DNA from: an uncultured Clostridia bacterium
Lineage (GTDB): Bacteria > Bacillota > Clostridia > TANB77 > CAG-508
Length of the DNA: 64,000 nt
Reading direction: 5' to 3'
NCBI GenBank assembly: GCA_944386135.1
Contig: CALWZW010000002.1
Span: 31,926 to 95,925, forward strand
The position numbers and the translations under genes are program-made. Shown here in pieces: positions 7,846 through 36,228 of the stretch. Under the pieces are notes generated by a model. The model worked only from the letters and a program-made list of their open reading frames with translations, was not told the DNA's origin and ran no database searches. Positions within the stretch are counted from its first letter, which is position 1; each line of letters starts with the position of its first letter.

Positions 7846-8442
7846 CTAAATTTCTTCATTTGTCAATCTAATCATCTCGTCCATAACTTGCTTACTTAAG
7901 CTGTCCAAGGTTTCTTTATCACTTTTCTTATCTTTGTACTCGCTAAAATCCATAGGTTTACCTATATTTATTTTAACTTTTGTAAAAGGTCTGTATTTAG
8001 TTTTAGATTGTATTCCTATTGGAATTATTGGTGTTCCAGACATCAAGCTCATAAGTACTGCACCATTTTGTATTTTTCTATTCTTTTTTATACCATTTCT
8101 TGTACCTTCTGCAAAAATTAAAACAATATGATTATCTTTTAAAACTTTCACACTATCTTTCAAAAGCTTTAAGTCCTGTTTTCCTCTTCTTACAGGCAAA
8201 GCATGTACTTTTACAGCAAGCCATTTTATAAAACCATTTATGAACATTTCCTCTTTAGCTAAAACATATATGTCATTTCTTTTAAGTGCTGCAATTATTG
8301 TTGGTGGATCCCAGTTACTTATATGATTTGGGCATAATATATAAGGCTTATCCTTTTCTATATTTTCTTGTCCAACTACTTTTACTCTATACAATAATAA
8401 TGTTGTAATCCTCAAAACAAATTTAATTATACTTCTAATCAT
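7846..8442 (-). CDS. plsC: 1-acyl-sn-glycerol-3-phosphate acyltransferase
   Basis: NHISNWD (HX4D) and FAEGTR motifs. Overlaps cmk by 8 bp. Confidence 0.8.
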   Translation of the reverse strand: MIRSIIKFVLRITTLLLYRVKVVGQENIEKDKPYILCPNHISNWDPPTIIAALKRNDIYVLAKEEMFINGFIKWLAVKVHALPVRRGKQDLKLLKDSVKVLKDNHIVLIFAEGTRNGIKKNRKIQNGAVLMSLMSGTPIIPIGIQSKTKYRPFTKVKINIGKPMDFSEYKDKKSDKETLDSLSKQVMDEMIRLTNEEI

Positions 8443-16725: not shown

Positions 16726-18108
16726 TTAAAATTCTATTTTTTCCTCTATCCATTTTGATAAATCTGATATTTTTACTCTTACTTGTTCCATTGTATCCCT
16801 GTTTCTTATTGTTACAGTATCATCTTTTTCTGTATCAAAATCTATAGTTATACAATATGGTGTACCAATTTCATCTTCTCTTCTATATCTTTTTCCTATA
16901 CTTCCTGCTTCATCATAATCACACATAAATTTTTTAGAAAGCATATCATGTACTTCTTGTGCCTTTGGACTTAACTTTTTAGATAATGGAAGAACCGCAG
17001 CTTTAAATGGTGCAAGGTATGGATGCAATTTTAATACTGTTCTTACATCTCCTTCTCCAACTTCTTCTTGAGCATAAGCATTGCAAAGAAAAGCAAGTGC
17101 AACTCTATCACATCCAAGCGAAGGTTCAATACAATATGGTATATATTTTTCCTTTGTCTCATCATCTAAATATGTAAGGTCTTCTTTAGAATGTTCCATA
17201 TGTTGTCTTAAATCAAAATCTGTTCTATCAGCTATTCCCCAAAGTTCTCCCCAACCAAATGGGAATAAGAATTCTATATCTGTCGTTGCTTTACTATAAT
17301 GACTAAGTTCTTCTTTTTCATGATCTCTCAAGCGAATATTTTCTTCTTTCATTCCAAGAGACAATAAAAACTTTTTACAAAATTCCTTCCAATATGCATG
17401 CCATTCTAAGTCTGTTCCTGGTTTGCAGAAAAATTCCACTTCCATTTGTTCAAATTCTCTTATTCTAAATGTAAAGTTTCCAGGTGTTATCTCGTTTCTA
17501 AAAGCTTTTCCTATTTGTGCAACTCCCATTGGTAATTTTTTTCTTGTTGTCCTCAATACGTTTTTAAAATTAACAAATATTCCCTGTGCAGTTTCTGGCC
17601 TTAAATAGATTTCGGCTTTTGCGTCTTCTGTTACTCCTTGGAAAGTTTTAAACATAAGATTAAATTTTCTAATTCCTGTAAAATTTTCTTTTCCACAGTT
17701 TGGACAAGCTATATGATGTTCTTTCATATATTCTATCATCTTTTCATCTGACCAACCATCTACAACTTGCTCACAATTATTCTCATGCATCCATTCTTCT
17801 ATTAACTTATCAGCTCTATGACGTGTTTTGCATTCCTTACAGTCTATAAGCGGGTCACTAAAACCTCCAACATGTCCTGATGCAACCCATACTTGTGGAT
17901 TCATGAGAATTGCTGCATCTAGTCCAACATTATATTTACTTTCTTGTATAAATTTCTTTCTCCATGCGCTTTTTATGTTATTTTTTAATTCAACTCCTAG
18001 AGGTCCATAATCCCATGTATTTGCAAGTCCTCCATATATTTCAGAACCAGCATATACATATCCTCTTGATTTACATAGATTAACTATAGTGTCCATTTGT
18101 TCTATCAT
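16726..18108 (-). CDS. glyQS: glycine--tRNA ligase (dimeric class II)
   Basis: 460 aa. [17 protein letters not shown] matches GlyRS. Confidence 0.92.
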
Positions 18109-22480: not shown

Positions 22481-24247
22481 CTAATTATTATCTTTTATGT
22501 CTAATTTTATATGAACATCTCTTAGTTGCTCTTCTGTAACCTTTCCAGGTGCTCCCATAAGTAAATCTTGTGCTTTACTATTCATAGGGAAAGCAATTAC
22601 GCTTCTTATATTTGGCTCATCTGTTAGTAACATTATCATTCTATCAACACCTGGTGCAATACCTGCATGAGGTGGAGCTCCATAGTGAAATGCATTAAAT
22701 AAAGCAGAAAATTTTTCTTCAATTACGTCTTTTGAGTAGCCTGCAACATCAAATGCTTTAATCATAAGTTCTGGGTCATGATTTCTTACAGCACCAGAAG
22801 AAAGCTCTATTCCATTACATACTATATCATATTGGTATGCAAGTATTTCAAGTGGATTCTTTGTTTCTAGAGCCTTCATCCCCCCTTGTGGCATTGAAAA
22901 TGGATTGTGACTAAATTCTATTTTTCCCTCATCAGATAACTCATACATTGGAAAATCTATTATCCAGCAAAATCTAAATACATCTTTTTCTATTAAGTCT
23001 AATCTATTTCCTAACTCTTTTCTTACTTCACCTGCAATATTTGCCACTACGTTTTCCTTATCTGCGATAAAGAAGATTGCTGCATTAGGTTCTAAACCAG
23101 TCATTTCCATTAAAGCTTTTTTATGTTCTTCATCAATAAATTTTGCAATAGAGCCTTGTAAAGTTCCATCTTCATGGACTTTAACCCATGCTAAGCCTTT
23201 TGCTCCACATTCAGATGTTGCAAATTCTACCATTTCATCAAAAAATCTTCTTGGCTTATCTGATATATTTTTGGCTACTATTGCTCTTATTGTTTTACCC
23301 TTGAATGCATTAAAATCTGTATCCTGAAATATCTCTGTCACATCTTGGATTATAAGTGGATTTCTTAAATCTGGTTTATCTGAACCATATTTAAGCATTG
23401 CATCTTTATATGTTATTCTTGGGAAAGGATATTCCGCAACTTTTTTATTTGAAAACTTTATAAAAGTATCATACATTACTTTTTCCATAACCTCAAAAAC
23501 ATCTTCTTGAGTTGCAAAAGCCATTTCCATATCTAATTGATAAAATTCTCCAGGTGCACGATCTGCTCTTGCATCTTCATCTCTAAAGCAAGGTGCTATT
23601 TGAAAATATTTATCTATTCCAGAAACCATAAGAAGTTGTTTAAATTGTTGTGGTGCTTGTGGAAGTGCATAAAACTTTCCTGGATGAACACGACTTGGTA
23701 CTAAATAATCTCTCGCGCCTTCTGGTGATGAGCTTGTAAGTATAGGTGTTTGTACTTCTGTAAATCCTCTTTCAATCATTTGAGTTCTTAAAAATTGCAA
23801 TATTTTAGACCTTAATAATATATTTTCTTTTAATTTTTCATTTCTTAAGTCTAAAAATCTATATTGTAACCTCAAATCTTCTCTTGCTTCTATATCAGAA
23901 TTAATCTCAAATGGTAAGTTTTTTAATCTTTTACCTAAGATTTCTATTTTTTCAATTTCAATTTCAATCTCTCCAGTAGGCATATCATTATTGATTGCCC
24001 CTTCTCCTCTTGGTCTTACTTTTCCTTCTACAGAAATTGTAGACTCTGTCAATATATTTGAAACCTCTTCAACTAATTCACTCTCTCCTGATGTTACAGC
24101 TTGAGTTATACCATATTGGTCTCTTACATCTACAAAGACCAATCCCCCTAAATTTCTTACAGATTGTACCCATCCTGCAATTTTAACAGTTTGTCCTATA
24201 TTTTCTTTTCTTAATTCTCCACAATTATGTGTTCTGTACTCATTCAT
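22481..24247 (-). CDS. aspS: aspartate--tRNA ligase
   Basis: MNEYRTHNCGELRKENIGQTVKIAGWVQSVR..FRDEDARADR..GGIAPGVDR. The true start is the internal MNEYRT at 24247. The 48-codon upstream extension in the ORF track is leader sequence. Confidence 0.9.
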   Translation of the reverse strand: MNEYRTHNCGELRKENIGQTVKIAGWVQSVRNLGGLVFVDVRDQYGITQAVTSGESELVEEVSNILTESTISVEGKVRPRGEGAINNDMPTGEIEIEIEKIEILGKRLKNLPFEINSDIEAREDLRLQYRFLDLRNEKLKENILLRSKILQFLRTQMIERGFTEVQTPILTSSSPEGARDYLVPSRVHPGKFYALPQAPQQFKQLLMVSGIDKYFQIAPCFRDEDARADRAPGEFYQLDMEMAFATQEDVFEVMEKVMYDTFIKFSNKKVAEYPFPRITYKDAMLKYGSDKPDLRNPLIIQDVTEIFQDTDFNAFKGKTIRAIVAKNISDKPRRFFDEMVEFATSECGAKGLAWVKVHEDGTLQGSIAKFIDEEHKKALMEMTGLEPNAAIFFIADKENVVANIAGEVRKELGNRLDLIEKDVFRFCWIIDFPMYELSDEGKIEFSHNPFSMPQGGMKALETKNPLEILAYQYDIVCNGIELSSGAVRNHDPELMIKAFDVAGYSKDVIEEKFSALFNAFHYGAPPHAGIAPGVDRMIMLLTDEPNIRSVIAFPMNSKAQDLLMGAPGKVTEEQLRDVHIKLDIKDNN

Positions 24248-27235: not shown

Positions 27236-27586
27236 CTATTCTATCCCCTCAATTCCTCCTCTTAAAGAATATAGGTTTGTATACCCTTGATTTTCTAGAA
27301 TTTCATATGCTTTTTTACTTCTGCTACCTTGTTGACAATAAAGTATAATTGTTTTGTTTTTATCCTTAAGCAATTTACTTGCTTCTTTTTTTAAATCATA
27401 TAGAGGAATATTTATTGCAAATCTTATTCTATTTTCCGCATATTCTTGTGGGCTTCTTATATCTATAATCTCTATTTCAGTATTAGAATTTATTAACTCT
27501 TTTAGCTCTCTATAACTAATTTCTCTTATTGTACCTAAATCTCTATTCTTTTTTAGTTTTTTAACTAGTTTTCTTACTATTTCCAT
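27236..27586 (-). CDS. rhodanese-like sulfurtransferase domain protein
   Basis: 116 aa. Active-site loop YCQQGSRS. Confidence 0.7.
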   Translation of the reverse strand: MEIVRKLVKKLKKNRDLGTIREISYRELKELINSNTEIEIIDIRSPQEYAENRIRFAINIPLYDLKKEASKLLKDKNKTIILYCQQGSRSKKAYEILENQGYTNLYSLRGGIEGIE

Positions 27587-27804
27587 TTACTTATTCATCC
27601 TCTCTTTAAGTCATATTGTTTAAAGTAGAATATTTGCGCTTTTACTACAATATATGACATATTTTTCTAAACTGTTCACATTGTTACGAATATTTTTCAA
27701 TGTTTTGACTTATATTACTAAAATATTACAGATATTTTTCAATTTTGTGTCTAAAATGTGTTTTATGTAAAATTTTTGCAACATTTTTAGTTTACATTTT
27801 GACG

Positions 27805-27847
27805 TTATCCACACTTTTTATTAAAATGTGGATAACTTTGTGAATAA
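27805..27847. promoter_or_regulatory. DnaA-box cluster: TTATCCACA, TGTGGATAA (inverted pair) and TGTGAATAA
   Basis: Two consensus 9-mers at 27805-27813 and 27827-27835, plus a one-mismatch box at 27839-27847. They sit inside a 440 bp AT-rich intergenic region. Confidence 0.5.
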
Positions 27848-28036
27848 CTGTCGTTTTTAACTTTTGAAGGTTTTAATTTTATACAGTTAAAATAATTTAT
27901 TTAATTATGTGAATTCTTTATTTTATTTTTCAAGTTATTATGTGTACAATTCTTTTGTTCGCAAAAAATAAACAGAAGTAGCAATTTTTCTTTGCTAACT
28001 TCTGCTTGACTTTTTGATATGATAACATACGTAAAT

Positions 28037-28388: not shown

Positions 28389-31300
28389 TTAAAACATGCT
28401 ATCAAACAAACTCATCTGATTAGTTTCACTCATGCCTTCAAGGCACCCAAATTTTTCAAGCAAAGCAATTGTAGAATCTCCAACCTTTGCACGTTTTTTT
28501 ATATCTTGTTTTGATATAAACTCTCCATTCTCACGTGCCGCTTGAATTCCTTGTGCAGCTATTTGTCCCATTCCAGCTATACTATTTAATGGTGGACGTA
28601 TGCTACCATCTTCTACCTTAAATTTTATAGCATCTGACTTATATAAGTCAATAGGTAAGAAATTAAGTCCTCTTTCATACATTTCAAGTACTAGTTCCAA
28701 TATTGAATACATGTTTTTATCCTTAGCTGATGCATCATTTCCAAGCCTTTTTATGTCTGCCATTTTTTCTTTTACTTTACTTTTTCCAAATATCATTATT
28801 TCGCTATCAAATTCATCTGCTCTTATTGAGAAGAAAGTTGCATAATATGCAAGAGGCATATGAACTTTAAACCAGGCTATACGAAACGCCATAGTTACAT
28901 AAGCAACCGCATGTGCTTTTGGGAACATGTACTCAATTTTTTTACAAGAATCTATGTACCAGTCAGGAACATCGTGTTCTCTCATAAGAGCTTCTTGTTC
29001 TTCTGATAATCCTTTACCTTTACGTACGGATTCCATTATTTTAAATGAATTTTGTGCAGGAAGTCCTTTGTTTATAAGATATATCATAATATCATCTCTT
29101 GTACATATTGCTTCAGCAAGGGTAGCTGTACCTGATTTTATTAAATCTTGTGCATTATTAGTCCATACGTTAGTACCATGCGACAAACCTGATATTCTTA
29201 TAAGTTCTTCAAATGTTTTAGGTAGTGTTTCAACAAGCATTTCTCTAACAAATCTTGTTCCAAATTCTGGTACGCCGAATGTTCCTACTTTAGAATCTAT
29301 TTGTTCAGGTCTAACACCTAGTGCTTCTGTAGAAGAGAATATTGACATTGTCGCTTTATCATCAAGTGGTATACTTTTTGGGTCAACATTCGTAATATCT
29401 TGAAGCATTCTTATTACTGTTGGATCATCGTGACCTAGCATATCGAACTTAAGTAAGTTTTTATCTATTGAGTGATAGTCAAAGTGTGTTGTTATTATAT
29501 CTGAATTAGGATCATCTGCTGGATGTTGTACAGGACAAAACTCATATATTTCACGTCCTTGAGGCACAACAATAACTCCACCTGGGTGTTGCCCAGTTGT
29601 TCTTTTTACTCCAGTACATCCCTTTGCAAGTCTCTCTATTTCGGCTGAACTTGTATGTATATTTCTTTCTTCAAAATAATTTTTTACATATCCATAAGCT
29701 GTTTTTTCTGCTATTGTACCTATTGTACCTGCTTTAAAAGTTGTACCTTTTCCAAGAATTACTTCTGCATATTTATGAGCTTTAGTTTGATATTCTCCAG
29801 AAAAGTTAAGGTCTATATCAGGCTCTTTATCTCCATTAAATCCTAGGAATGTTTCAAATGGAATATCTACTCCATCTTTAACAAGCTTTGTACCACATTT
29901 AGGACAATTTGCATCTGGTAAGTCGAAACCATTTTTAACCCCATGGCCTGAAAAATCTGAATACTTACATTTTGGGCACCTATAATGCGGTTTTAAGGCA
30001 TTAACTTCCGTTATACCTGTCATATAGGCTGCAAGAGAAGAACCTACAGAACCTCTTGAACCTACCAAGTATCCATCCTCATTAGATTTCCACACAAGTT
30101 TTTGAGCTATTATGTACATTACCGAGAAGCCATTTCTTATAATTGAATCTAGTTCCTTTTTTAATCTTGTTTCTACAATTTCTGGAAGTGGATCTCCATA
30201 TAATTCTTTTGCTCTATTCATGGCAATATCTTCAATGGTTTTTTCGCATCCTTCAATATGTGGAGGGCACTTTTCCTTAGAAATTGGACTAATTGGTTCA
30301 CACATATCCGCTATTTTATTAGTGTTTGTTACAACAACTTCATAAGCTTTTTCTCTTCCTAGATATGCAAATTCATCTAACATTTCCTCCGTTGTGCGTA
30401 AATATAAAGGAGCTTGCATGTCTGCATCATCAAATTTTTGTCCAGCCATTAATATTCTTCTATATATTTCATCTTCAGGATCCATAAAATGGACATCACA
30501 AGTTGCAACTACAGGTTTTCCAAGTTTTTCACCTAATGCTACTATTTTTCTGTTTATTTCCATTAATCCATCTCGATTCTCCATTGTACCATTTCTTATT
30601 AAATATTCATTGTTACCTAATGGCTGTATTTCTAAATAATCATAAAATGATGCAATTTCCTCTATTTTTTCTTCTGATAGCCCCTCTAATATAGCTTGAT
30701 ATAGCTCTCCTCTATCACATGCACTACCTATTATTAGTCCTTCACTATATTTTCTGTATACACTTCTTGGAATTTTAGGTTTTTTATAAAAATAATCCAA
30801 ATGAGAAAAAGATATTAGTTTATATAGATTTTTTAGTCCTACATAATTTTTCGTTAAAATAACAGCATGATATGTTGGTAAATGTTTCAAGTTCAATTCG
30901 TCTTTATATGCATTATCAATTTCATTTACTGTTGTAACACCTTTTTCTTTTAGTTTTTTAATCATTACCTCAAAAACTTTTACAAGTGTTTTTACATCGT
31001 CTAAAGCTCTGTGTGCAACATCAACTCTTATTCCTAGGTTATCAGCTATAACTCCAAGTTTATGTTTTTTATAATCTGGAAACATATCTCTTGCAAGTGC
31101 GAGAGTATCAATATATGTATTATTTAGTTTATATCCTTGTAGCTCCGCAAAATGTCTAATAAATCCAATATCAAAATTTGCATTGTGTGCAACTAAAACA
31201 TCATCTCCTATAAATTCTAGGAATTTGGGTAATACTTGCTCTATTGTTTCTGCATCTCTTACCATATCATCTGTAATATGTGTAACTTTGATTACTTCAT

Positions 31301-32372
31301 AAGGTATTGGTTTTTCTGGATTTACAAAGCATTCAAAAGTATCTATAATTTCACCGTTTTTTATTTTTATAGCACCAAATTCAGTGATTTTTTCTGTTCT
31401 AAATGAAAGTCCTGTTGTCTCTATATCTAATACGCAATATTCTGTATCTAAATTTTGGTTTTTAGGGTTATATACACTTGTTTGTCCATCTGGAACAAGG
31501 TACGCTTCGACTCCATATAGTACTTTTATATCTCCTTTATTATCTTCCACTACATGATTAGCTTTAGGAAAAGATTGTACTACTCCATGGTCTGTAATTG
31601 CAATAGCCTTCATCCCCCATTTTCTGGCGCGATTTATAAGATCTTCTACTGGTGTTACTCCATCCATTTGGCTCATTTGAGTATGCATATGAAGTTCTAC
31701 TCTTTTTACTTCACTTCTGTCCATTCTTGTCATCTCATTTTTAGCTTCTGCTTCCATAACTACATTTGCCATAATAGTTACTTCTTTTGAAAATGGGTCA
31801 AATTGAGCATTTCCAGAGACAGTAACTCTAGGTGCAGAATTTATTCTATCTAATACTTTATCCTTTACATCTGGTTCTATGAAAGCTTTGCAAGTTATTG
31901 TACAAGAACCATCATATACATTTATCATTAGAAGGAATTTACCAGACTTAAGTTCTTTTAATTCCTGTTTTATTATTTTTCCACAGATAACTACTTTTCC
32001 ACTATCCATGTTTATATCTTTTACTTTTACAACTTTGTCTGTAATTTTGGCTTTTTTGTTTCCTATTATTACTGGAGTGTACTCCTCTTGCTTTTCTTCT
32101 CCATTTTCTGTTGAATTTTTAGTTTGTTTGTGTGTTTTTGTTTCATGGACATCTACGTTTATCTCAACGTCTTGGACTCTAAATTTACTTTTTAGATAAA
32201 ATTCAAATGCTAATTTTTCACCAATTTGTATTTTGTTTGAAGATTTTAAATCTATTTCTAGTTTATTTGATTTTTTAAAAATACTTACATTTACTATTTC
32301 ACATTCTTGGATATTTCCATTTGCTTCATAGTCTTTAAATACGTCCTTTACTTTCTTTGCTTCATTTGTCAT
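28389..32372 (-). CDS. polC: DNA polymerase III alpha subunit, Gram-positive PolC type
   Basis: 1327 aa. PHP domain (HMHTQMS), inserted DnaQ-like exonuclease (YCVLDIETTGLS), C4 zinc module (CPKC..CPKC), polymerase core and C-terminal HhH/OB. Confidence 0.95.
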   Translation of the reverse strand: MTNEAKKVKDVFKDYEANGNIQECEIVNVSIFKKSNKLEIDLKSSNKIQIGEKLAFEFYLKSKFRVQDVEINVDVHETKTHKQTKNSTENGEEKQEEYTPVIIGNKKAKITDKVVKVKDINMDSGKVVICGKIIKQELKELKSGKFLLMINVYDGSCTITCKAFIEPDVKDKVLDRINSAPRVTVSGNAQFDPFSKEVTIMANVVMEAEAKNEMTRMDRSEVKRVELHMHTQMSQMDGVTPVEDLINRARKWGMKAIAITDHGVVQSFPKANHVVEDNKGDIKVLYGVEAYLVPDGQTSVYNPKNQNLDTEYCVLDIETTGLSFRTEKITEFGAIKIKNGEIIDTFECFVNPEKPIPYEVIKVTHITDDMVRDAETIEQVLPKFLEFIGDDVLVAHNANFDIGFIRHFAELQGYKLNNTYIDTLALARDMFPDYKKHKLGVIADNLGIRVDVAHRALDDVKTLVKVFEVMIKKLKEKGVTTVNEIDNAYKDELNLKHLPTYHAVILTKNYVGLKNLYKLISFSHLDYFYKKPKIPRSVYRKYSEGLIIGSACDRGELYQAILEGLSEEKIEEIASFYDYLEIQPLGNNEYLIRNGTMENRDGLMEINRKIVALGEKLGKPVVATCDVHFMDPEDEIYRRILMAGQKFDDADMQAPLYLRTTEEMLDEFAYLGREKAYEVVVTNTNKIADMCEPISPISKEKCPPHIEGCEKTIEDIAMNRAKELYGDPLPEIVETRLKKELDSIIRNGFSVMYIIAQKLVWKSNEDGYLVGSRGSVGSSLAAYMTGITEVNALKPHYRCPKCKYSDFSGHGVKNGFDLPDANCPKCGTKLVKDGVDIPFETFLGFNGDKEPDIDLNFSGEYQTKAHKYAEVILGKGTTFKAGTIGTIAEKTAYGYVKNYFEERNIHTSSAEIERLAKGCTGVKRTTGQHPGGVIVVPQGREIYEFCPVQHPADDPNSDIITTHFDYHSIDKNLLKFDMLGHDDPTVIRMLQDITNVDPKSIPLDDKATMSIFSSTEALGVRPEQIDSKVGTFGVPEFGTRFVREMLVETLPKTFEELIRISGLSHGTNVWTNNAQDLIKSGTATLAEAICTRDDIMIYLINKGLPAQNSFKIMESVRKGKGLSEEQEALMREHDVPDWYIDSCKKIEYMFPKAHAVAYVTMAFRIAWFKVHMPLAYYATFFSIRADEFDSEIMIFGKSKVKEKMADIKRLGNDASAKDKNMYSILELVLEMYERGLNFLPIDLYKSDAIKFKVEDGSIRPPLNSIAGMGQIAAQGIQAARENGEFISKQDIKKRAKVGDSTIALLEKFGCLEGMSETNQMSLFDSMF

Positions 32373-32520
32373 TTATTTTCTGCCTCCAATTTTAGTATAA
32401 TTGTTAGTTCATTAACTTGTATTTTATATCAGTAAAATATAAAAATCAAGATAGAAATTATGAAATTTTTATATACCAAAGTAAGACGACCAAAGGCCGT
32501 CTCACTTATTCTTCGTTATG

Positions 32521-34065
32521 TTATCTTGCTTTGATACTAAATGGTGATGTTGCTGTTCCAGAACCTGTTTCTCCAATCGTAACGGATGATCGATCAATTT
32601 CAACTACGGGGCGCACCGCAGAGCTAATGCTGTAGTTGTAGCTGCCCGAGTAATACAAATGGTTGGCGTCCACAGTACCACCGCCCACAAAGAACATCCT
32701 GAAATTCGCAATGAGACTGTTAAAGCCGACGCAGCGCGAAGCGAGCCAATACGTTGTCGAGTTCTCTGGGACAAACATACTATAATATGTTGCTCCTACA
32801 TTGCTTCTTGTCATGTTGTATGAATAATATGTCCATTTTCCTTTTAATGTCGTAGCATGTGATGTCCCTGTTACATAATTTGTTTGGTCACTTAAGTCTA
32901 AATCTTTTCCATATATTTCATTTACTGAGCCTGTTAATTCATCTGCAAATATATTTGGATAATATGTATTTGATGGCGAATATTCTCTTCCATAATTTGA
33001 ATATCCGTTTTTATTATATGTTGACACTTCTTCTATATCTCTTATTTTTAAACTTCTTCCTACTGCACTTAAGCTACTATTACTATACATTGCTTTACAC
33101 GCATCATCTAATAGTTTTACTCCATTATTATATCCATTTGCTCCACTTAAGTAAAATCCTGTATTTGCTGTTGTATCCGATATTAATGTAATTGTAGTAT
33201 CATCTACAAACATTATTCTCCATTTTAAACTTGTTATTGTTGAAAAACTTTTGTTACTACTTCCATTATATGTTCCTTGCGATGTAAAGCTTCCACTTAC
33301 TGGTGTATAATCTATATACTCTCCTATGCTTGCTTTTAACTCTTCTGTTGGCAATCCATTATCCTGTGTTCCTTGTTTTGTTATTGCACTTGTTGTTTGA
33401 TATCCTGCTCTATCTGATACTATGACTCTTATATAATAATTCTTTCCTACTTCTAAGTTTGTATATGTATATGAACATGTTCCTTCTGTACTCGCTTCTG
33501 TTCTTACTGTCGTAAAATCTTCATCATTCTCTGTTCCTATATTATCTACACTACTCATTCCGGTTAGCTCATCATAATATACTTGATATACATACCCTTC
33601 TTGCACAGTTACTATTATATCTTTACTTTCTTCATTTGGCACTGCTGATTTTATCCATGACTCATTCTCCATATCTGCTGCCATACTTGTTACTGTTGTC
33701 GTTCTTCCTGCTAAGCTATCTGCTAGTATAATACTATGTACTAATTGCTCTATCTGCTCTTTATATTGCTGATACTTGTAGTCATCTACTGCTTCTTCTG
33801 TTCCGACTATTATCCCTTCATCTCCTGTGATTTGGCTTACTGCAACTCCTACTAGTATGACAAGTAATATTACTGTAACTAGCAATGCAATTAATGTAAT
33901 TCCTCTTTCTTCCCTTGTTTTTTTGAATTCGTATGATTTTTGTGTACTATTAATATACCCTTTAATTAGGGCATAATGGTTTGGTCTGACTTTGATTTTC
34001 ATTTTTGGTTTGGTTTCCTCCTTGTTCTTTAGTTTAGTTTTTTGTGTCTTTTCGAAATCTGCCAA
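32521..34065 (-). CDS. large pilin-like surface protein. A 54 aa leader precedes a non-canonical type IV prepilin-like segment G-ITLIALLVTVILLV (no Glu+5). TTG start.
   Basis: 514 aa. The start codon TTG at 34063-34065 lies inside a 39 bp palindrome arm. The hydrophobic helix resembles a minor-pilin (GspK/PilX-like) N-terminus. The remainder is Thr/Ser/Tyr/Asn-rich. Confidence 0.5.
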   Translation of the reverse strand: MADFEKTQKTKLKNKEETKPKMKIKVRPNHYALIKGYINSTQKSYEFKKTREERGITLIALLVTVILLVILVGVAVSQITGDEGIIVGTEEAVDDYKYQQYKEQIEQLVHSIILADSLAGRTTTVTSMAADMENESWIKSAVPNEESKDIIVTVQEGYVYQVYYDELTGMSSVDNIGTENDEDFTTVRTEASTEGTCSYTYTNLEVGKNYYIRVIVSDRAGYQTTSAITKQGTQDNGLPTEELKASIGEYIDYTPVSGSFTSQGTYNGSSNKSFSTITSLKWRIMFVDDTTITLISDTTANTGFYLSGANGYNNGVKLLDDACKAMYSNSSLSAVGRSLKIRDIEEVSTYNKNGYSNYGREYSPSNTYYPNIFADELTGSVNEIYGKDLDLSDQTNYVTGTSHATTLKGKWTYYSYNMTRSNVGATYYSMFVPENSTTYWLASRCVGFNSLIANFRMFFVGGGTVDANHLYYSGSYNYSISSAVRPVVEIDRSSVTIGETGSGTATSPFSIKAR

Positions 34066-34175
34066 TAGGGACGCATCTAAAATGGCAGGTTTTCGAAAAA
34101 TAAGTTTATTAGATTTTAATTTTAATCAAAACCTGCCATTTTAGATGCGTCCCTATTGGCAGATTTCGTTATTAA
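34063..34175. repeat. REPIN-like inverted doublet: two 39 bp arms AAATCTGCCAATAGGGACGCATCTAAAATGGCAGGTTTT, perfect, separated by 35 bp
   Basis: Perfect inverted repeat. It overlaps the start codon of the 32521-34065 gene. Confidence 0.8.
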
Positions 34176-34194
34176 CTTTGTATAGTTTTTATCA

Positions 34195-34392
34195 CTCTAG
34201 TGAAGAATAAATATAAATTGATGAAATTAGCGCCTGCAAGTATTTCGAATTAGAAATTGTTAATTTTCAAAACGAGTAAGATTCACGTTTGCCGTGAAAA
34301 AGGCTTGTTTTGAAAATTACTACAATTTCTATGAAGAAATACGTAGCTTAAGCTAATTGAAGAATATTTATATTTATTCTTCACTAGAGTAC
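34195..34392. repeat. nested palindrome: outer 24 bp inverted repeat CTCTAGTGAAGAATAAATATAAAT flanking about 145 bp, which contain a second imperfect 28 bp inverted repeat and a central TCACG-N5-CGTGA hairpin
   Basis: Inverted repeats seen directly. Lies between the divergent pilin-like gene and the XRE regulator. Confidence 0.75.
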
Positions 34393-34782
34393 AGTATATT
34401 TAAAATTATTCTATACATTATACACAAAAGCTAACTCTTGCTTTGTGCTTCTCTCCTTATGGTTAAAAACTAAATGGTAAAAGTCAAAACCAAACAAAAC
34501 CAAAACCATATTAGTTTCCACCCATAAAGAGAGAAATATGTTGAAATACCTTAAATGTAGCTTACAAACAATTACTTGTTCTATCTACAAATTGCCTCAA
34601 TATTTTTAGTCATATTACGACTATATTAATTATTATAGTCATAATATAACTAATTGTCAATAGTTAAATTTTGATTATTGTAAAATATTTCTGTATGTAT
34701 TTTTGTGCAATTATTTTTAGGAGTTATTTTAGAGACTATTTATAAAATTTATAGTCTTTAATTATCGTTAATGGAGGGTGTT

Positions 34783-35007
34783 ATGATTAGATTAAAAGAT
34801 TTAAGAGAGGATAGAGATTTATCCCAGAATGATATTGCAAGAATGTTAAATATTTCCCAGACAAATTATAGTAAATATGAACTTAATAAAATAAATATTC
34901 CACTTGAAACTTTAAAAAAATTAGCGTTTTTTTTCGATACAAGTATAGATTATATTTTAGGCATAACAAATGTAATTACTCCATATCCAAGAGCAAAAAA
35001 TAATTAA
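34783..35007 (+). CDS. XRE-family (Cro/C1-type HTH) transcriptional regulator
   Basis: GGAGGGTG RBS, then ATG at 34783. LSQNDIARMLNISQTNYSKYE is the HTH_3 motif. Confidence 0.75.
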   Translation: MIRLKDLREDRDLSQNDIARMLNISQTNYSKYELNKINIPLETLKKLAFFFDTSIDYILGITNVITPYPRAKNN

Positions 35008-35107
35008 TATAAAATAAAAAGTCAAAACCAACCATAGATTTTTTCGCTATGGCTTATTTTTTTCATCAAAAAAAGACACTTCTCAAAGTGCCTTTTTAAT
35101 TTACATA

Positions 35108-35389
35108 TTAGTTTTGTGTGTATGGTAACATAGCAATATGTCTACATCTCTTAACAGCAAGTGTTATATCTCTTTGATGTTTAGCACAAGCTCCAGTAGC
35201 TCTTCTTGGTAAAATTTTACCTTTATCGTTGATAAATTTCTTTAATTGATCTGGATTCTTGTAATCTAATACTAAGTTTTTATCTGCACATAATGGGCAA
35301 ACTTTCTTTCTTTGTTTTCTAAACTTAGGATTATAATCATCATCATTATTTCTGTTATTTCTTCTATTATTTTGCTTCTTATCAGCCAT
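35108..35389 (-). CDS. rpsR: 30S ribosomal protein S18
   Basis: [10 protein letters not shown]...[32 protein letters not shown]. Confidence 0.9.
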
Positions 35390-35417
35390 TTTCTCTTTCC
35401 CCCTATCTTAGTAATTT

Positions 35418-35846
35418 TTAAAATGGCAAGTCGTCACTAGGTGTTAATTCAAATTCACTATTTTGAGCCATATCTGCTCCAAAAGTATTTTCAAAGCTTC
35501 CACTGTTATCTCCAGAGCCTGAATCTCTTTTGCTATCTGCAAAATATGCTTCCTCTGCAATAACTTCTGTTACATAATGTTTTTGTCCTTTATCATCTTC
35601 CCAATTTCTTGTTTGAATTCTACCTATTATACCAACTTGTTGTCCTTTTTTGAAATATTTGCTGCAAAATTCTCCTTGCTTTCCCCAAGCAACTATATTT
35701 ATAAAATCTGCTTGTCTTTCTTCTCCTTGTCTCACAAATCTTCTATTTACTGCAAGAGAAAAACTTGCAACTAAAGTATTGTTTGTTTGAGTGTATCTAA
35801 CTTCTGGGTCTCTTGTAAGTCTTCCCATTAATATTACTTTGTTCAT
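35418..35846 (-). CDS. ssb: single-stranded DNA-binding protein
   Basis: OB fold, Gly/Ser-rich tail and terminal DDLPF. Confidence 0.92.
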   Translation of the reverse strand: MNKVILMGRLTRDPEVRYTQTNNTLVASFSLAVNRRFVRQGEERQADFINIVAWGKQGEFCSKYFKKGQQVGIIGRIQTRNWEDDKGQKHYVTEVIAEEAYFADSKRDSGSGDNSGSFENTFGADMAQNSEFELTPSDDLPF

Positions 35847-35940
35847 TTATTATTCCTCCTTGATATACTTATTTGCCTCCTGGATAGAGTTATATATCTT
35901 CAGGCTTAAGTATTGTACAAACAATACTTAAAATTCAAGA

Positions 35941-36228
35941 TTATTCTTCATCTTTTCTAACTACGATAAATTTTATAATCTCATCTGTTATTCTGTAATT
36001 TCTTTCAAGTTCAGCAATTAATTCTGGTTTAGCTTCAAATGTAAATAGAACATAATAAGCTTCTTTATTTTTTCCTATTTCATAAGCTAATTTTCTTTTT
36101 CCCATTTCAGTAACTTCTGAAACTTTTCCTTCAGTATTGATCAAATCTGTAAATCTTGTTATTAATCCTTTGATAACTTCTTCCTCAACATTTTGACCAA
36201 TAATGATTATACTTTCGTATTTATTCAT
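35941..36228 (-). CDS. rpsF: 30S ribosomal protein S6
   Basis: 95 aa. MNKYESIIII...GKRKLAYEI. Confidence 0.9.
   Translation of the reverse strand: MNKYESIIIIGQNVEEEVIKGLITRFTDLINTEGKVSEVTEMGKRKLAYEIGKNKEAYYVLFTFEAKPELIAELERNYRITDEIIKFIVVRKDEE

Follow-up and report, generated by a model that had tools for sequence, protein, structure and literature searches.

What is a compact cluster of DnaA boxes doing in a non-coding spacer that lies far from any dnaA gene? The locus that raises this question is a spacer of 450 bp (27587-28036) within a stretch of 64,000 nucleotides, hereafter the window, of contig CALWZW010000002.1, which comes from an uncultured gut Clostridia metagenome-assembled genome with 29% guanine plus cytosine (G+C), a species that several ENA and Logan assemblies also contain. 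The annotated genes on either side of the spacer are all on the minus strand, in the order polC, DUF1294, spacer, rhodanese. We conclude that the site is very likely a real secondary docking or regulatory site for DnaA, and not a replication origin. Comparison of sequences suggests, and we hold it to be probable, that the cluster sits in a promoter region with several inputs, where DnaA would regulate transcription and be titrated as a side effect.

Read along the transcribed minus strand, the cluster consists of TTATTCACA (box 1), AAG, TTATCCACA (box 2), 13 nucleotides and TGTGGATAA (box 3, inverted), placing three boxes with at most one mismatch inside 43 bp (27805-27847; Table 1). The DnaA-box consensus, TTWTNCACA, is degenerate at positions 3 and 5. 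The box form TTATNCACA is given in published work (PMC4447404). Perfect boxes occur twice in the 64 kb, both times in this cluster, with approximately 0.8 expected from composition. Boxes with at most one mismatch number 22 in the window against 23.2 +/- 4.6 in shuffled sequences and, thus, the window as a whole is no richer in boxes than chance. Of 300 simulations of the window under a first-order Markov model, none produced two perfect boxes within 30 bp, and none produced a group of at least three boxes (one mismatch or fewer) within 45 bp.

A first-pass annotation of this DNA had described two perfect 9-mers in inverted orientation and a one-mismatch box within 45 bp, in an unusually long, AT-rich, non-coding spacer between DUF1294 and rhodanese genes and close to polC. 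All three boxes are where it had placed them, the neighbouring genes carry the corresponding Pfam domains, and the 450-bp spacer has 22.4% G+C compared with 29% for the window. It had also allowed that a high background frequency of the box could make the clustering unremarkable; the shuffles and simulations show instead that the clustering is non-random.

Conservation of the array was assessed by scanning one genome per species with the C terminus of PolC, which yielded 80 loci. The array is kept at the same site, downstream of polC-DUF1294, in at least 22 species-level genomes (14 close and 8 more distant), across which identity is 68-94% for PolC, 46-79% for DUF1294 and 38-63% for rhodanese. 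Metagenome contigs with this locus type add at least six further cases, one of them at 46% G+C. The 14 close species (PolC C-terminal identity 85-94%, DUF1294 46-79%, rhodanese 49-63%) all share the core AGTTATTCACAAAG-TTATCCACA-TTT(T)-N9/10-TGTGGATAA, with a constant 13-bp gap, and in each related locus of approximately 13 kb the array is the sole cluster of three or more boxes.

The substitutions that do occur in this close group are confined to a few box positions. Box 2 is unchanged in 14 of 14 species and is found in more distant relatives as well, while box 1 varies at position 5 only (T, G or A). Box 3 carries one substitution in five of the 14, either at position 3 (A to T, two species) or at position 9 (A to T or C, three species), so that positions 3, 5 and 9 account for all seven substitutions counted in boxes 1 and 3. 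The position-9 variant of box 3, TTATCCACT, is identical to box I of DARS1, one of the DnaA-reactivating sequences (DARS) of Escherichia coli. Within the species, four single-nucleotide polymorphisms were found in the spacer, none of them in a box.

The array is larger in more distant relatives. The eight distant species (PolC identity 68-75%) and the metagenome contigs of this locus type carry such an enlarged array at the same place, with four to six boxes in rearranged order, up to six of them in 94 bp with tandem gaps of 0-3 bp, and the 9-mer persists throughout. In locus L027, for example, the array reads TTATCAACA, 6 nt, TGTGAATAA, approximately 28 nt, TTATTCACA, 3 nt, TTTTCCACA, 0 nt, GTATCCACA, 3 nt, TGTGGATAT. 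The 9-mer that adjoins box 2 without a gap is TTTTAATAA in the window and TTATCCACA, GTATCCACA or GTTTCCACA in relatives; its leading TTT(T) is invariant throughout the close group. Because relatives carry a full box there, we read the 13-bp gap of the window as a decayed 9-bp box plus 4 bp; this box is probable, and it may still bind DnaA with low affinity. A 9-mer that persists while box number and arrangement change is typical of DnaA arrays.

The changing arrays, together with substitutions limited to particular box positions, argue for DnaA as the ligand and against a factor that recognizes a palindrome or an RNA hairpin. On the palindrome or hairpin reading, TTATCCACA-N13-TGTGGATAA would be an operator for a dimeric regulator distinct from DnaA, or an attenuator or small RNA hairpin in a leader. 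It is suggested by the perfect 9-bp inverted repeat (10 bp when an adjoining G and C are counted; 14-nt arms with one mismatch), which is also the sole consensus helix that RNAalifold returned, no other being found between -115 and +125 (distances here and below are counted from the first base of box 2). However, none of its nine pairs shows covariation, all five departures break a pair and the box 2 arm never compensates. The inverted arm is missing in L044, L047, L048 and L050, where direct boxes remain, and a further box, in direct orientation, is conserved to the same degree as the palindrome. No terminator-like U-run follows the hairpin, a search of all 64 kb at the Rfam gathering threshold matched no family, and matches to the spacer at E<=10 were at chance level only (mir-287, STnc340, a CRISPR repeat and PreQ1). 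We therefore regard an operator or hairpin of this kind as very unlikely.

The box 1-box 2 pair is not peculiar to this locus, as we had considered it might be. A metagenome scan for TTATTCACA-N3-TTWTCCACA returned more than 120 contigs with 25-69% G+C, and some of the pairs lie next to dnaA. Among those whose neighbours were checked, the pair stands directly upstream of dnaA in L113, L159 and L110 and between dnaA and dnaN in L128. Other pairs lie at loci without dnaA, beside TatD/IF-2B, DEAD-box helicase and priA genes and a short-chain dehydrogenase gene (L122). As it is found beside dnaA in other bacteria, the tandem pair represents a module that DnaA would be expected to bind.

An array that DnaA would bind, in an AT-rich non-coding stretch of 22% G+C, could in principle be a chromosomal origin, half of a bipartite origin or the relic of one. 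The rpsF and ssb genes, origin-proximal in Bacillus subtilis and cultured clostridia, are found approximately 8 kb away and lend this idea some further support. The remaining evidence points the other way. When the window is divided into 2-kb bins, 31 of the 32 show negative GC skew, the exception being a value of about zero at 44-46 kb, far from the spacer, and at 1-kb resolution the skew ranges from -0.09 to -0.33 in every bin between 20 and 34 kb. Thus, skew is negative on either side of the spacer with no sign change there, and the genes to its left and right point the same way, here as in all related loci. A Pfam scan of the larger open reading frames of the window detected neither a Bac_DnaA nor a beta-clamp domain, and no dnaA or dnaN was called in approximately 10 kb beyond its left end or 8 kb beyond its right end, leaving a dnaA-free stretch of some 37 kb to the left and 44 kb to the right of the cluster. 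The spacer contains no DnaA-trios, defined as runs of at least three TA[AG] or [CT]TA repeats, and a relic would not hold a rigid architecture over so many species. An origin in any of these forms is extremely unlikely. The proposal in the first-pass annotation, a DnaA-titrating or DnaA-regulated site in place of oriC, accords with these observations and with the finding of a non-random cluster, kept in at least 22 species, whose substitutions fall at tolerated positions.

If not an origin, the spacer looks like a promoter region with several regulatory inputs. It contains a strong intrinsic terminator (minimum free energy -21.8 kcal/mol, z-score -4.8; none of 200 shuffles as stable), whose T-run is kept in relatives together with a GCGAAC behind it. 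Because this terminator closes the polC-DUF1294 operon, transcription of the next operon must start from a promoter within the spacer. Two promoter-like elements, P1 and P2, stand upstream of the boxes. The CATAAT of P1 is invariant in the close group, and a CATAAT lies at -104 to -107 in most element-bearing genomes, distant ones included; a second CATAA(T/A), that of P2, lies at -71 to -74 from the central box in the close group. On the other side of the boxes, a conserved block (27761-27795) contains TGTAAA hexamers in both orientations, and ACATAA is found at +64 to +68 in most element-bearing genomes and at +54 to +56 in L027, L028, L104 and L163; in L013 it is not at that position. Sequence between these fixed motifs drifts, while the distances from boxes to hexamers stay constant within approximately 2 bp.

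Hexamers of the form TGTWAH are in three- to fourfold excess downstream of the boxes, with conserved positions at +39, +64 (reverse strand), +105, +116 and +147. The direct repeat TGTAAT-N5-AGTAAT of the window is a perfect TGTAAT-N5-TGTAAT in several relatives, which we take to be a form of site for a response regulator of the WalR/OmpR type, and the repeat module has a second copy 42 bp downstream (27684-27715 compared with 27726-27757). This TGTWAH array, both enriched and positionally conserved, likewise points to a regulatory region. The module of approximately 330 bp is kept whole, and insertions in relatives lie only outside it: in L019 a PD-(D/E)XK transposase precedes the module, and in L059 and L060 additional genes follow it.

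Several other identities were considered for these motifs. Four promoter candidates (TTGCGA-16-CATAAT, TTGAAA-18-CATAAT, TTTACA-15-TAATAT and TTGAAA-17-TGTAAT) were examined and none is asserted here, as their -35 parts or spacings are unconvincing. The ACATAA motifs were rejected as weak DnaA boxes, since the putative 9-mers show no conservation at positions 1-4. LexA (GAAC-N4-GTTC), Rex, NrdR and Spo0A boxes and sporulation sigma -10 elements, compared by eye, gave no consistent fit. Nine small open reading frames of 20-40 amino acids in the spacer are all low-complexity and AT-rich, and metagenome gene callers called no gene there.

We propose that the 43-bp core is a predicted high-affinity array in the promoter or leader region of the operon that begins with rhodanese. 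DnaA would bind cooperatively to three or four boxes and modulate transcription that starts in the spacer, which would thereby follow the level or activity of DnaA, that is, replication status. The array would also sequester several DnaA molecules away from oriC. If the upstream CATAAT promoters were used, bound DnaA would act as a roadblock and repress; if the downstream TTGAAA-17-TGTAAT promoter were used, it would activate from approximately -100. We infer DnaA occupancy, promoter choice, the direction of control and any influence on initiation from these sequence features.

The cluster has what defines a secondary DnaA-box cluster of the B. subtilis type at the level of sequence: consensus boxes that are clustered, intergenic, conserved and outside the origin. 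B. subtilis carries six such clusters outside oriC (PMC3245932; PMC4447404), which regulate neighbouring genes and restrain initiation (PMC3245932; PMC4447404; PMC13220808). Clusters of this type usually, though not necessarily, lie near the origin. As in B. subtilis, the boxes are intergenic consensus boxes in a Firmicute, away from dnaA and next to promoters, here promoter-like elements. Unlike the B. subtilis clusters, the array flanks polC-DUF1294 and rhodanese, has three to four boxes in the window (up to six in relatives), keeps rigid spacing to conserved flanking motifs and adjoins a TGTAAT array. There is a similar resemblance to DnaA-regulated promoters, such as those of dnaA itself (autoregulation), of sda, ywlC and yydA in B. 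subtilis and of nrdAB in E. coli, where a few high-affinity boxes of mixed orientation lie within approximately 100-150 bp of promoter elements. However, the putative target operon (rhodanese, histidine phosphatase, MltG and possibly aspS) is not among the targets named in PMC3245932 or PMC4447404.

Several observations weigh against the reading that we favour. The -35 parts of the promoter candidates are weak or variable, and only the -10-like hexamers are conserved. The three strong boxes are presumably fewer than those in the strongest B. subtilis clusters. Additionally, the first downstream gene varies: usually it encodes rhodanese, yet it is an AMP-binding enzyme in L027 and L028 and DUF4874/DUF4832 in L059, L009 carries the element without rhodanese, and the rhodanese genes of L020-L023 lack boxes altogether. 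The element is thus not tied to one product, and a role at the level of the chromosome fits this variation at least equally well.

This independence from any one downstream product keeps alive the view that the array is purely a DnaA sink, with no effect on neighbouring transcription and with the other motifs belonging to an unrelated promoter that shares the spacer. The element is kept whatever gene follows, and B. subtilis clusters still restrain initiation when they are relocated on the chromosome (PMC3245932). However, box-to-hexamer distances held within approximately 2 bp amid drifting sequence are hard to explain if boxes and promoter motifs are independent, and three or four boxes make a small sink. 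Titration alone is, in our judgement, unlikely.

The persistence of the element whatever gene follows also invites comparison with the E. coli sites that alter the nucleotide state of DnaA. The DARS1 core consists of TTATCCACT, 5 bp, TGTGGATAA, 3 bp, TGTGTATTA, and that of DARS2 of TTATTCACC, 5 bp, TGTGGATAG, 3 bp, TGTGAAGAA. On the plus strand the window has TTATCCACA forward, 13 bp, TGTGGATAA reverse, 3 bp, TGTGAATAA reverse, the same forward-reverse-reverse order and orientation as in DARS (PMC5742627), with the same 3 bp between the co-oriented boxes II and III (CTT here, CCA in DARS1 and AGT in DARS2). Like DARS, the element is non-coding, outside oriC and flanked by conserved sequence, with flanking motifs at fixed distances across family-level divergence, and in relatives the extra box leaves only 3-4 bp to the inverted box. 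A Clostridial counterpart of DARS or datA would use this fixed geometry (head-to-tail boxes, a head-to-head box and accessory sites at about -105 and +66, where accessory proteins would bind) to change the nucleotide state (through ADP release or ATP hydrolysis) or the oligomeric state of DnaA, and not to regulate genes. DARS activity is defined by the preferential assembly of ADP-DnaA and the release of its ADP.

Against such a counterpart, the head-to-head gap between boxes I and II is 13 bp, not 5 bp, in the window and all 14 close species, and the inverted box is absent from some relatives (L044, L047, L048 and L050, as above). Sites for IHF and Fis are not to be expected, since Firmicutes are not known to have either protein. 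Two direct boxes and one inverted box also occur in ordinary dnaA promoter regions (L113, L159). DARS function depends on box spacing (PMC5742627). In the reviews consulted, DARS and datA are treated as E. coli elements, and the review on B. subtilis lists DnaA-box clusters only. The element likewise resembles datA as a DnaA-box cluster outside oriC for several DnaA molecules, whose binding is predicted here, but no accessory site of the datA type is identifiable. We do not file the element as a DARS because it lacks one defining feature, the 5-bp head-to-head spacing, and we think a DARS- or datA-like function quite unlikely. If it were nevertheless true, this would be the first element of that type outside Proteobacteria, next to the replicative polymerase gene polC.

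Triads with the spacing of the E. coli DARS core do occur among the metagenome contigs. In 15 of 79 distinct tandem pairs, drawn from loci L094-L173, an inverted box lies exactly 5 bp downstream (for example L129:6809-6850, L152:2659-2700 and L145:4416-4460). Contigs with such triads range from approximately 31% to 67% G+C, and the three that were checked are not beside dnaA (TatD/IF-2B, DEAD-box helicase and priA). Under the DARS-like reading, these forward-5 bp-reverse-3 bp-reverse triads would suggest that DARS-type elements are far commoner than known.

Secondary DnaA-box clusters have been studied functionally in few models, namely B. subtilis, E. coli and Streptomyces. In kind, the cluster described here is unsurprising, and a specialist would expect such sites. 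Beyond what the first-pass annotation had noted, it presents a decayed fourth box, rigid motif spacing, a TGTAAT array and a DARS-like box order. Thus, it offers a compact, conserved candidate for testing how DnaA ties gene expression to replication status in Clostridia, with downstream genes that include cell-wall enzymes such as MltG, and it allows one to ask whether titration or DARS-like sites exist in this class.

Table 1. Features of the DnaA-box spacer and its flanking genes, in the direction of transcription (window coordinates)
Feature	Position	Strand	Description
polC	32372-28389	minus	1327 amino acids; Pfam PolC
DUF1294 membrane protein gene	28333-28037	minus	Pfam
Intrinsic terminator of the polC-DUF1294 operon	27962-28016	minus	Hairpin followed by UUUAUUUUUU
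Promoter-like element P1	27937-27964	minus	TTGCGA, 16 nt, CATAAT (27942-27937); from a consensus scan, putative function
Promoter-like element P2	27904-27933	minus	TTGAAA, 18 nt, CATAAT (27909-27904); from a consensus scan, putative function; contains near-invariant AATAAAATAAA and motif TTCACATAAT
DnaA box 1	27839-27847	minus	TTATTCACA on the minus strand, TGTGAATAA on the plus strand; one mismatch, at degenerate position 5
DnaA box 2 (central)	27827-27835	minus	Perfect TTATCCACA on the minus strand, TGTGGATAA on the plus strand; 3 bp past box 1
Probable decayed or low-affinity DnaA box	27818-27826	minus	TTTTAATAA, abuts box 2; putative DnaA binding
DnaA box 3	27805-27813	plus	Perfect TTATCCACA; orientation opposite to that of boxes 1 and 2; 13-bp gap to box 2
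Conserved block	27761-27795	minus	GTAAAC (27795-27790) and TTTTACATAAAA (27772-27761)
Promoter-like element	27714-27742	minus	TTGAAA, 17 nt, AGTAAT; overlapped by the direct repeat TGTAAT-N5-AGTAAT
Rhodanese-domain gene	27236-27586	minus	Pfam; first gene 3' of the box element

The genes on either side of the spacer show further features. Downstream of rhodanese and on the same strand follow genes for a histidine phosphatase (His_Phos), a Cu_amine_oxidN1/SH3 protein, MltG and AspRS; aspS begins approximately 156 bp after mltG and may share transcription from the DnaA-box spacer. In L059 (approximately 8230-8270) and L060 (approximately 8290-8320), the genes inserted between module and rhodanese have in their leader a (CA)n run of some 12-20 repeats, a possible phase-variation tract. 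On the other side, the distance from rpsF and ssb down to polC is only some 3 kb (28389-36228), and a 514-amino-acid protein without Pfam family is encoded between them. This arrangement differs from the usual Firmicute context, which in B. subtilis is polC followed by rimP, nusA and infB.

Arrays of TGTAAT or TGTAAA with 11-bp spacing (TGTWAH-N5-TGTWAH) occur at three places in the window: 27714-27741 (minus), 60521-60559 (plus) and 44281-44297 (minus). The 17-mer TGTAATATTTTAGTAAT is the same at 27714-27730 and 60543-60559, and an exact TGTAAT-N5-TGTAAT lies approximately 120 bp upstream of nrdD. The Rfam search found no T-box leader in the window, which has at least two aminoacyl-tRNA synthetase genes (16726-18108 and 22481-24247).

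Elsewhere in the window, a gene for a small acid-soluble spore protein (PF00269) lies at approximately 61.5-61.9 kb (L091:9580-9786), on the other strand from the genes around it. This gene and the M50 and M23 peptidase genes at 37.5-39.1 kb suggest a spore-forming host. Between 47711 and 60419, approximately 12 co-oriented genes, mostly without Pfam match and with weak AAA_31 and T2SSE matches, may represent a divergent pilus or secretion gene cluster. Finally, the perfect palindrome GTTGCAAATGCAAC is present in two copies (approximately 44397-44410 and 44214-44227) between nrdD and a divergent gene for a Crp/Fnr-family regulator (44417-45073), and this pair is likely the operator pair of the adjoining regulator.

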